Shown here: piece by piece, positions 17,734 through 22,915 of the stretch
How positions within the stretch are numbered: the stretch's first letter is position 1
Layout of the letters: every line of letters starts with the position of its first letter
Assembly: GCA_022447065.1 (NCBI GenBank)
Contig: JAKUUM010000006.1
Span: forward strand, 761-64,760
Origin: SAR86 cluster bacterium
GTDB lineage: Bacteria; Pseudomonadota; Gammaproteobacteria; Magnimaribacterales; Magnimaribacteraceae
Direction: 5' to 3'
Length of the DNA: 64,000 nt
The notes under the pieces: generated by a model
Database searches by the model: none
Seen by the model: the letters and a program-made list of their open reading frames with translations, nothing else
What the model was told of the DNA's origin: nothing
Made by a program: the position numbers and the translations under genes

Positions 17734-20217
17734 ATGAGACTCAAAACAGTAAAACTTGCTGGCTTCAAATCTTTTGTTGATCCTACTTCAATCTCATTTC
17801 CTTTTGAATTAACTGCAATAGTTGGACCCAATGGTTGTGGAAAGTCAAACATAATTGATGCCGTTAGGTGGGTATTGGGTGAAAGTTCTGCTAAAAGCTT
17901 AAGAAGCAAATTAATGTCGGAAGTTGTTTTTAATGGTTCCGCTACAAGAAAGCCTGTTTCTAGAGCCTCAGTAGAGCTCTTCTTTGATAATAAGGATGGA
18001 AGAATTGGGGGAGAATTTGCTGACTATAGTGAGATTTCTGTCCGCAGAACCCTAGACCTTGGTGGACATTCGAATTATTACCTCAATGGAACTAATTGTA
18101 GAAAAAGAGATATAACAGATCTTACCTTAGGAACAGGATTAGGTCCTAGAAGTTACGCGATAATCGAACAGGATATGATTTCGACTTTAGTCAGCTCCAA
18201 GCCAGAAGAGATGAGAGGATACATTGAAGAAGTAGCTGGTATATCGAGATATCTCGAAAGACGTAAGGAATCTGAGTCACGAATTAAAAGAACAAAAGAG
18301 AATCTAAGCAGGTTAGAGGATCTCAGACAGGAAATAGGAAGGCTCTTGTTCAAATTAAAGCAGCAGGCAAAGGCAGCAGAAAGATATGCTAATTTAAGAA
18401 AGGAAGAAAACCACTCCAAAGGCCTTTTGTGGTCTTCTCAGTGGCAGCTAAAAGCAGATGAAGTTGCCAAAAAAGATAAAAAAGTTAGGTTGCAAAAGAT
18501 TGAACTTGAAGAAATAAATTCCCTAAAAACTTCTTCGGACTCGGAGATAGATAAATTAAGAACTCAGCAAATGGAAATGCAGTCTGATATGGATAAGATT
18601 CAACAAGAATTTTACAGTTTAGGTGCCGATATTTCACGTTTGGAACAAGAAATAAAGGCACATAAAAACAATGCGTCGGAGATTACAAAAAACATAGATA
18701 ACAACAACTTAACTTTAGTTATTAAAAATAATGAACTGGAAAAATTATCGAAAGAGAAAGAAGAACTGAAAGCGTCCATTGCGGTAATAAGTTCTGAATT
18801 AGAGAAATTGAGAAAAAAACAATTAACCGATGTTAATTCAGACTCTCAAGTAGAAAGCCTTGAAGAAGAGTGGGGCGATTTTTCTAATAAACTTACTAAT
18901 CTCTCAAATAAACTTAAAGAAGTGGAAAAGAAGCTTTTATTTCAGGTAGCTAGCGGAAGAATTACAGAACAAGGCATACTCTCTGATTCGGGTTTAAAGC
19001 AAGTTGAAGCTTCCCTAAATACCCTTGCTAAGATTCCTCTAGTGTTATTTGAAAGGATAAAATTACTATTTAAAGGATCTAAGAAGGAAGAAAGGGAAGA
19101 TAGATTGGAACTTTTAGATAAGACTGGGAAATACGCTGACTTTCAAGCTAAGCTTGCAACGAATATTTCCTTAGCAAATCACCTAAAAGCTGAAATAGTA
19201 GCTTTGGAGTTGGAAATCAATTCTTTAGAAAGCCAGATTACTTCGAACAAAGAACCTTCAAAAAAGATGGAAGAGTCTTTGGGCCTATTACTTCAATCTA
19301 GGCTAACAGCTGAAGAGAACATGGCTTTAGTAAGAAAATCTATAGATGATGCTTCAGATAGAATTAGAAATATAGAAAAAGAAAGATTAGAAAAGGAACA
19401 GAAATCTATAACTTCCAGAGAAGCGCTAGAAACTTTTCGCTTAGAACACCAAGCTTCGATGATGGAAGCTGAGAATATTGAAAAACAGATTGAACAAAAT
19501 GGTTTAAATATTAATGAACTGTTGCCAGAGTTAGACGAGGAAAAGTCTATTGATTATTATCAGAGTGAACTGGAAAAACTCGAAACGAAGATTTCTAGAT
19601 TGGGTGCAATAAATTTAGCAGCCATGGAAGAATACTCCCAAGAAGAAAAAAGAAAAGAGTATCTAGATAAACAACATGAAGAACTTACGAGGGCTTTAGA
19701 GACTCTCCAAAAAGCAATTAAAAAAATAGATAAGGAAACGAGAACAACCTTTAAAGACACTTTTGACAATCTAAATAAGAATTTAGGGAAATCTTTTCCA
19801 AAATTATTTGGTGGTGGACACGCAGAATTAATCCTATTAGACGATGATTTGCTTACAGCTGGGGTAGGCATCTCTGCTAAACCGCCTGGGAAAAGAAACA
19901 CAAGTGTTTCTCAATTATCAGGAGGGGAAAAAGCCCTCACAGCAATTGCCTTGGTCTTTGCTTTCTTTGAACTAAATCCAGCTCCTTTTTGCTTGTTAGA
20001 TGAGGTAGATGCTCCGTTAGATGATCTTAATACCATGCGGTTTATTAGCTTAGTTGAAGATATGTCTGACAAAGTTCAATTTGTGTATATAACTCATAAT
20101 AAAATCTCGATGGAGAAAAGTAAGCATCTTATGGGTGTAACAATGCAAGAGCCAGGAGTTTCCAGAATGGTTTCTGTAGATGTAGATGAAGCTATTAAAC
20201 TAGCTGCAAGTGCATAA
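17734..20217 (+). CDS. smc: Chromosome segregation protein SMC, unusually short (827 aa) and apparently hinge-less
   Basis: N-terminal head FKSF...GPNGCGKSNIIDA and C-terminal head LSGGEKALTAIALVFA...LLDEVDAPLDD. Long heptad-rich arms. Sits in the smc-zipA-ligA order. Confidence 0.8.
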   Translation: MRLKTVKLAGFKSFVDPTSISFPFELTAIVGPNGCGKSNIIDAVRWVLGESSAKSLRSKLMSEVVFNGSATRKPVSRASVELFFDNKDGRIGGEFADYSEISVRRTLDLGGHSNYYLNGTNCRKRDITDLTLGTGLGPRSYAIIEQDMISTLVSSKPEEMRGYIEEVAGISRYLERRKESESRIKRTKENLSRLEDLRQEIGRLLFKLKQQAKAAERYANLRKEENHSKGLLWSSQWQLKADEVAKKDKKVRLQKIELEEINSLKTSSDSEIDKLRTQQMEMQSDMDKIQQEFYSLGADISRLEQEIKAHKNNASEITKNIDNNNLTLVIKNNELEKLSKEKEELKASIAVISSELEKLRKKQLTDVNSDSQVESLEEEWGDFSNKLTNLSNKLKEVEKKLLFQVASGRITEQGILSDSGLKQVEASLNTLAKIPLVLFERIKLLFKGSKKEEREDRLELLDKTGKYADFQAKLATNISLANHLKAEIVALELEINSLESQITSNKEPSKKMEESLGLLLQSRLTAEENMALVRKSIDDASDRIRNIEKERLEKEQKSITSREALETFRLEHQASMMEAENIEKQIEQNGLNINELLPELDEEKSIDYYQSELEKLETKISRLGAINLAAMEEYSQEEKRKEYLDKQHEELTRALETLQKAIKKIDKETRTTFKDTFDNLNKNLGKSFPKLFGGGHAELILLDDDLLTAGVGISAKPPGKRNTSVSQLSGGEKALTAIALVFAFFELNPAPFCLLDEVDAPLDDLNTMRFISLVEDMSDKVQFVYITHNKISMEKSKHLMGVTMQEPGVSRMVSVDVDEAIKLAASA

Positions 20218-20222
20218 CCTGT

Positions 20223-22915
<2,693 letters not shown>

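Follow-up and report, generated by a model that had tools for sequence, protein, structure and literature searches.

An order-wide hinge-less Smc protein in SAR86 marine bacteria

Of the three parts that define the textbook SMC protein, one is the hinge, which has been invoked for dimerisation, for DNA binding and, in some models, for DNA entry. How much of it does a cell need? In Bacillus subtilis, what fold the dimerisation domain has is of no consequence provided that another dimeriser is present, and shortened arms of 253–267 aa are functional; a construct of Buermann et al. 2017 reads smc(1–398, Zn hook, 773–1186), and the arms of natural canonical Smc proteins have length modes of 163, 238 and 341 aa (PMC5344682). 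A 2025 ocean-metagenome study described an abundant 'hinge-less SMC' clade and assigned it to marine Actinobacteria (PMC12153180). Here, we analyse the smc gene in 64,000 nucleotides of a SAR86 cluster bacterium (contig JAKUUM010000006.1, positions 761 to 64,760; this whole stretch is "the window", and positions below count from its first letter), taken from an assembly of 1.55 Mb in 50 contigs that is 93% complete. Its 827-aa product is an Smc that has lost the hinge, and the same holds throughout the sampled order. A search of the literature on SAR86 SMC or its hinge returned nothing relevant. What is new is thus the order-wide hinge-less Smc, a novelty tempered by the 2025 actinobacterial report and by a dimerisation mode that we infer.

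An earlier note on this DNA, made from the letters alone, had described an intact 827-aa SMC with two canonical head halves, shortened arms and an apparently missing hinge, and each of these observations held up. The open reading frame starts with ATG and runs through 827 codons without an internal stop. Its parts are laid out as follows.

17734..20217, + strand: smc, encoding the 827-aa hinge-less Smc, orthologue of gammaproteobacterial Smc (TIGR02168, nearest relatives, trees)
17734..18240, + strand: N-terminal head half (residues 1–169), with Walker A GPNGCGKS, R57 and Q-loop Q146 (invariant columns, Foldseek)
18241..18954, + strand: N-terminal arm helix (residues 170–407) with a short break at 364–370 (AlphaFold DSSP)
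18955..19032, + strand: apex cap (residues 408–433), a loop and two short helices, the sole non-coiled-coil part (AlphaFold apex model)
19033..19809, + strand: C-terminal arm helices (residues 434–692), colinear with canonical SMC (AlphaFold DSSP)
19084..19173, + strand: conserved island below the apex (residues 451–480), R..R..L..KT...A..QA..A...S (entropy 0.9 bits)
19498–19548, + strand: joint interruption (residues 589–605) inside the C-terminal arm (AlphaFold DSSP)
19810..20214, + strand: C-terminal head half (residues 693–827), with the LSGGEK signature, Walker B LLDEVD, D-loop and H-loop H788 (invariant columns, Foldseek)

Profile searches locate the gap. A Pfam scan assigns SMC_N to residues 3–810, together with several P-loop families, and gives no match to SMC_hinge (PF06470) in the 827-aa protein even at E<=1, residues ~400–470 included, where the earlier note had proposed to look. 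Against TIGR02168, the bacterial SMC equivalog model of 1181 positions, the protein scores 835.3 bits (cut-off 567.35), split into two stretches: the best pairs residues 2–401 with model positions 1–402, and the C-terminal half resumes at about position 813, as it does in TIGR02169, where residues 456–816 align with positions 813–1164. Absent are model positions 403–812 (~410), which hold the hinge along with the distal stretches of both arms. Searched with the hinge model in all six frames, the entire 1.55-Mb assembly likewise yielded no hinge; the search was positive in 10–11 of 14 control genomes. Across the window's own genome and 60 relatives, several of them closed single-contig genomes, hinge matches numbered 0 in 61; because the closed relatives are negative too, the absence is not an assembly gap. 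Pfam and NCBIfam scans were likewise hinge-negative for five other hinge-less proteins, four from SAR86 and one from the genome G218 that we return to below, and Pfam found no hinge in representatives of any SAR86 family.

Alignment with a canonical 1171-aa SMC (P0122) draws the same picture at higher resolution. Query residues 1–384 correspond to 1–388 of the canonical protein and residues 473–825 to 797–1170, such that canonical residues 389–796 are swapped for a mere 88. The break points lie near positions that are paired in the Buermann et al. constructs, and the loss is therefore register-matched on both coiled-coil strands. What remains is an N strand of ~238 aa (170–407) and a C strand of ~259 aa (434–692, joint included), about 70% of canonical arm length (~240–260 versus ~340 aa).

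What has taken the place of the hinge? We modelled the full-length protein with AlphaFold2 from 21 orthologues (mean pLDDT 74) and the apex alone, residues 340–520, from 36 sequences (pLDDT 80). In the full-length model, an N-arm helix spanning 170–363 is followed by a break, a helix at 371–406, three short helices within 412–446 and the C-arm helix from 451; the apex model has helices at 341–365 and 368–407, a loop at 408–411, helices at 412–418 and 421–432, and one continuous helix at 434–519. In these predictions only ~26 residues fall outside the coiled coil, and the centre—residues ~402–454 make up the segment that the earlier note had singled out—is all-helical with zero beta strands, which leaves no room for a hinge of ~150 aa with a mixed alpha/beta fold. 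The centre contains few glycines and is free of cysteines, and all the SAR86 families, like G218, lack both a CxxC motif and a conserved apex cysteine; a Rad50-type zinc hook is thus absent as well. When compared with the PDB by Foldseek, the apex model had no match at E<=0.001, its weak matches being to helical hairpins of a generic kind, from periplasmic adaptor proteins, from segments of the Smc5/6 arms and from a coiled-coil fragment of Pyrococcus Smc, and a phmmer search of the apex against PDB sequences returned nothing below E=0.77.

Conservation is distributed unevenly over this region. Within the family of this genome (f1), the apex tip (residues 391–435) is the least conserved stretch of the whole protein, with entropies of 1.8–2.5 bits, and the island at 451–480 stands at 0.9 bits versus 1.6–2.5 in the flanking arm. 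Across all four families, the centre has zero invariant columns and is interrupted by indels of 13–95 aa. The island could be a candidate contact between the distal arms, or with a partner protein.

The hinge-less form is shared by nearly all relatives. The set of 61 genomes covers four families of one order, and the relatives are 'SAR86 cluster bacterium' by the database names on identical or near-identical proteins. An intact hinge-less orthologue was found in 58 of them, and in 32 of the 33 that are of high quality. The survey of SMC lengths that the earlier note had called for gave 58 short proteins in the 61 genomes, of 728–827 aa, with 995 aa in one genus:

Family f1 (that of this genome): 821–827 aa
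Family f3: 810 aa
Family f2: 728–732 aa
Family f4: 732–736 aa
One genus of family f2: 995 aa (L040:2501-5485, L041:2501-5485)

A full-length SMC beside which the present copy would look degraded, the outcome that the earlier note had named as fatal to its proposal, was not encountered among these relatives. In codon alignments of closely related family-f1 pairs, dN/dS amounted to 0.01–0.05 in the heads, 0.05–0.2 in the arms and 0.07–0.29 in the apex. Judged by its intact frames, low dN/dS and invariant catalytic residues, the gene is functional. An assembly deletion or a pseudogene is ruled out by the 58 independently assembled intact orthologues together with these ratios.

It is, consequently, hardly credible that a diverged hinge went undetected, that an assembly lost it or that the gene is decaying. 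Nothing but the prior expectation that SMCs have hinges speaks for any of these, and they would have to accommodate the ~26 non-coiled-coil residues in an all-helical centre, the lack of a hidden Markov model (HMM) signal at E<=1, and the recurrence of one architecture, in intact frames and with dN/dS well below 1, in 58 independent assemblies that include closed ones. The earlier note's alternative of a hinge too divergent for the eye is refuted on the first two counts.

One relative departs from the pattern. In P0020 (721 aa, from NCBI), found in a genus-level relative, ~105 aa are gone from the C-terminal arm only, the apex runs straight into '...IEKQRLDKEQKAISS', and the two arm strands would be of unequal length. 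This protein forms a single-member cluster and may be an assembly or gene-call artefact. As a further observation on these orthologues, NCBI labels P0038 and P0039 as 'AAA family ATPase' and not as chromosome segregation protein SMC, and surveys based on names would accordingly score SAR86 as SMC-less.

Is the protein nevertheless a genuine Smc? The head argues that it is. The motifs on which the earlier note had relied are all in place: GPNGCGKSN at residues 31–39, LSGGEKALTAIALVFA at 728–743 and LLDEVDAPLDD at 754–764. Across 21 SAR86 sequences, K37/S38, R57, Q146, the SGG signature, D756/E757, D759 of the D-loop (APLD) and H788 are invariant. By Foldseek, the whole AlphaFold model matches the Smc head, joint and ScpA structures 5xei, 5h67 and 3zgx, with 5xei (Smc head with coiled coil and joint) as the best PDB match, and in the C-terminal head half the matches are to head–ScpA complexes of B. 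subtilis Smc.

Phylogeny points in the same direction. In a search of 1.84 billion representative proteins, the nearest sequences after the SAR86 clusters were SMCs of 1150–1190 aa at 40–50% identity, each of which aligned in two stretches. Maximum-likelihood trees place the SAR86 proteins as one clade within gammaproteobacterial SMC (SH-aLRT 99–100), and this single clade implies that the loss happened once, in an ancestor shared by the families sampled from this order. On the strength of these alignments and trees, we regard the protein as a true Smc orthologue; in that ancestor, a matched internal deletion would have taken out the hinge together with the distal third of each arm.

Could a small genome be reason enough for such a loss? 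For comparison, we drew on 201 gammaproteobacterial genomes, 182 of them with an SMC. Among the matches listed, all 150 cover the full length of the model, with frames of ~1162–1457 aa (mostly 1165–1250), and at least seven other gammaproteobacterial genomes of 1.4–1.6 Mb keep SMCs of ~1170–1217 aa; genome streamlining is therefore insufficient as the sole cause. Split matches occurred in 17 genomes, of which ten were examined (G068, G150, G170, G185 and G225 were left out), and these turned out to be contig breaks, a frameshift or diverged hinges, with the exception of G218. This genome (1.1 Mb, 3 contigs, 99% complete) encodes an intact 944-aa SMC (L055:157-2991, − strand) that lacks model positions 499–738; no hinge match was found in the protein or the genome, and ScpA is kept. 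The G218 protein groups, on a long branch, not with SAR86 but with the hinge-bearing 1160-aa SMC of its nearest sampled relative, G251, which points to a hinge loss independent of that in SAR86. In the high-GC gammaproteobacterium G122 (L057, contig C5), the SMC is split over two frames of 702 and 372 aa with hinge-like sequence visible by eye, which points to a frameshift or assembly error rather than to hinge loss.

Two sets of proteins of intermediate length were considered as evolutionary way stations and rejected. The gammaproteobacterial SMCs P0269 (1003 aa) and P0171 (990 aa), natural representatives of the short-arm class, combine short arms with a retained hinge (PF06470 at 444–540 and 436–532, respectively); in the tree, they fall within the full-length outgroups, away from SAR86. 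The 995- and 1035-aa forms of SAR86 itself are not ancestral intermediates either, as their extra length is tandem duplication and the 995-aa form is nested within the 730-aa forms.

The partners of Smc are retained, too. The earlier note had advised checking the rest of the genome for scpA/scpB or mukBEF: ScpA (118 bits) and ScpB (177 bits) are encoded side by side in intact frames on another contig (C8), and a genome search for MukB by its N-terminal domain, PF04310, came back empty at E<=1. ParB was found, and a second SMC was not. A hinge in trans, a second SMC and MukB were rejected, as searches of the 93%-complete genome found none of them; nor did a hinge-bearing second SMC or MukBEF turn up in the closed single-contig relatives. 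Across the order, ScpA is present in 59 of the 61 genomes and in all 33 of high quality. Going by its gene content, the cell thus keeps the Smc–ScpAB–ParB toolkit, with the hinge-less Smc as its only SMC.

These findings bear on the idea that the protein has changed its function and is no Smc–ScpAB organiser but an ATPase with another role, such as a repair clamp acting as a monomer or a transient head dimer. The hinge is, after all, a family hallmark that also binds DNA, the database name reads just 'AAA family ATPase', and the authors of the 2025 study speculate on an altered function of the actinobacterial hinge-less SMCs (PMC12153180). We nonetheless judge a change of function to be very improbable in SAR86: this is the sole SMC of the genome, it occupies a conserved locus and keeps all head motifs and the joint, its score lies far above the TIGR02168 equivalog cut-off, and throughout the order it has been kept alongside ScpA, ScpB and ParB.

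How, then, might two such monomers be held together? We lean, if only by a little, towards a protein that has no dedicated distal domain and whose dimer is held by contacts between the arms, between the heads and with ScpAB. This reading is favoured by a tip that is less conserved than any other part of the protein, by a centre without an invariant column and by an apex without likeness to known dimerisation modules. The protein would then still act as the Smc–ScpAB chromosome organiser: two hairpin monomers might be joined side by side through 'rod' contacts between their arms, by juxtaposed or ATP-engaged heads, and by an asymmetric ScpA bridge that would link one Smc's neck to the other's cap and carry a ScpB dimer. 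The engaged heads would clamp DNA, which would be kept in the head–kleisin compartment, and the island at 451–480, along with the region around W380, could provide the most distal of the arm–arm contacts.

Several considerations weigh against a dimer of this kind. The B. subtilis hinge keeps the arms at high local concentration. Without distal closure, the tripartite ring is open at its top, which conflicts with simple ring-entrapment models. The arms of the 730-aa forms, ~195–205 aa by subtraction, fall off the reported length modes of 163, 238 and 341 aa. Finally, the island at 451–480 could be a specific, apex-proximal dimer interface.

The last of these points leads to the main competing explanation, namely that the helical apex, or the segment below it (the W380 region plus 451–480), is a new dedicated dimerisation module. 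The hairpin tips would pack as a four-helix bundle and a closed Smc–Smc–ScpA ring would be kept, in the manner of the distal coiled coil of RecN or of an engineered Rad50 hook. An island of conservation (0.9 versus 1.6–2.5 bits) does adjoin the apex, the apex is under purifying selection at a dN/dS of 0.07–0.29, and in B. subtilis the role of the hinge can be taken over by a dimerisation domain unrelated to it (PMC5344682). Set against this, the tip itself (391–435) is what the protein conserves least, the centre of the four families varies by indels of 13–95 aa and shares no invariant column, the apex model is unlike any known dimerisation module, and in the long forms the island is duplicated along with the arm, which leaves one copy ~100 aa away from the apex. 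We therefore treat an apex module as possible, though rather unlikely. The suggestion in the earlier note that a minimal SMC dimerises in another way is supported by order-wide conservation, purifying selection and the retention of ScpAB, while the RecN-like apex it had in mind is one possible form of this.

A more radical version of the arm-and-head dimer would dispense with distal dimerisation altogether: free-ended hairpin arms and the head–kleisin module would suffice for ParB-dependent loading and chromosome-arm organisation in a bacterial group that ranks among the most abundant in the ocean. We put this forward as a tentative proposal that may well fail. If true, neither a closed Smc–Smc–kleisin ring nor contacts between hinge and DNA would be required for Smc function, and the one mechanically essential element would be the arm, tunable in steps of ~100 aa by matched duplications.

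Such duplications exist in SAR86. A diagonal BLOSUM scan located the repeats in the long forms:

P0026 (1035 aa) and P0022 (1063 aa), homologues from metagenomes: N-arm repeat at an offset of 107 aa with 50–55% identity; C-arm repeat at an offset of 102 aa with 36–39% identity
995-aa form (one genus of family f2): N-arm repeat at an offset of 120 aa with 30% identity; C-arm repeat at an offset of 143 aa with 35% identity

In P0026 and P0022, each of the two C-arm copies still carries the island motif. The tree puts the 995-aa form within the group of 730-aa forms; it is hence derived, and its arms were re-lengthened secondarily. Going by these repeats, at least two SAR86 lineages have lengthened both coiled-coil strands in parallel, by ~100–140 aa per strand. 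The matched duplications resemble the ~100-aa steps between the natural arm-length classes of Smc, a parallel rather than a test, and mirror in nature what laboratory work has found, namely that Smc arms are functional in discrete length classes only. Two metagenomic proteins, P0033 (931 aa) and P0044 (927 aa), share 99.4% identity when a repeat copy is taken out of both: in one, a near-exact duplication of ~106 aa is confined to the N-arm; in the other, a duplication of ~102 aa is confined to the C-arm. They are either real alleles with mismatched arms or a doubly duplicated allele of which each assembly collapsed one half.

As for the genomic neighbourhood, smc follows ccmF-ccmG-ccmH-ccmI and precedes zipA and ligA. 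The order smc-zipA-ligA is the usual one in Gammaproteobacteria, as in Pseudomonas, and the conserved position that the earlier note had reported is borne out by this order and by matches to ZipA_C and the ligase domains.

20223..20876, + strand: zipA, 217 aa, a short form and the downstream neighbour of smc (PF04354 ZipA_C, E=3e-19)
20888..22915, + strand: ligA, NAD-dependent DNA ligase, which completes smc-zipA-ligA (full Pfam ligase domain set)

ZipA scores only 47 bits against its full-length model TIGR02205 (cut-off 120). In this streamlined genome, a 217-aa ZipA with a well-scoring C-terminal FtsZ-binding domain and a poor full-length score suggests a much shortened linker region.

Taken together, an order of abundant free-living marine bacteria keeps Smc–ScpAB–ParB with neither hinge nor substitute hook, and its smc gene is under clear purifying selection. 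The hinge was apparently also lost independently in one small-genome gammaproteobacterium (G218) and, according to PMC12153180, in a marine actinobacterial clade. What the hinge is needed for thereby becomes testable with natural rather than engineered proteins. Labels such as 'AAA family ATPase', combined with coverage filters, will lead surveys of SMC distribution to undercount such proteins.

How does the SAR86 protein compare with described systems? To bacterial Smc of the B. subtilis and Pseudomonas type it is tied by the same head motifs, the same head and joint fold, the ScpA/ScpB partners, ParB and the locus, as well as by 40–50% identity, across heads and proximal arms, to the ~1170-aa SMCs of Gammaproteobacteria. 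It differs in measuring 827 aa instead of ~1170, in having arms of ~240–260 instead of ~340 aa, and in ending in a predicted helical-hairpin apex where the others bear a hinge. RecN and Rad50/SbcC likewise pair an ABC-type head with a hairpin of antiparallel coiled coil, without an SMC hinge. However, SAR86 Smc reaches 24.3 bits against the RecN model TIGR00634 (cut-off 407.85), 21 bits against the SbcC model (478.5) and at most 58 bits against Rad50 models (cut-offs of at least 700, one of 1087), its apex resembles no RecN structure, and whereas Rad50/SbcC have a CxxC hook and Mre11/SbcD as partners, it has no CxxC and is accompanied by ScpAB. An identity as RecN or Rad50/SbcC is ruled out by these HMM scores, the lack of CxxC and the ScpAB partners.

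Closer in appearance is the ocean-abundant clade of PMC12153180, which also combines an SMC-type head with an antiparallel coiled coil, has neither hinge nor CXXC hook and, like the SAR86 forms, was detected only in uncultured plankton. Belonging to a different phylum, it must be of independent origin. That study includes no host genomes with ScpAB context and no arm-length analysis, and makes no mention of SAR86; its rule of 80% mutual coverage would probably have excluded proteins of 730–830 aa when seeded from SMCs of ~1170 aa.

The nearest functional parallel, we believe, is man-made. The cut points of the SAR86 protein, at ~388 and ~797 in canonical numbering, are similar to those of the Mini-Smc and Smc(Zn-hook) constructs, and its arms belong to a functional length class (PMC5344682): those of the 827-aa protein lie near the natural 238-aa mode and near the 253–267-aa window that is functional in B. 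subtilis. The engineered proteins always kept either the hinge or a Rad50 zinc hook (PMC5344682), and SAR86 Smc has neither. By this analogy, it would work most like an engineered Mini-Smc or Smc(Zn-hook), minus the replacement dimeriser.

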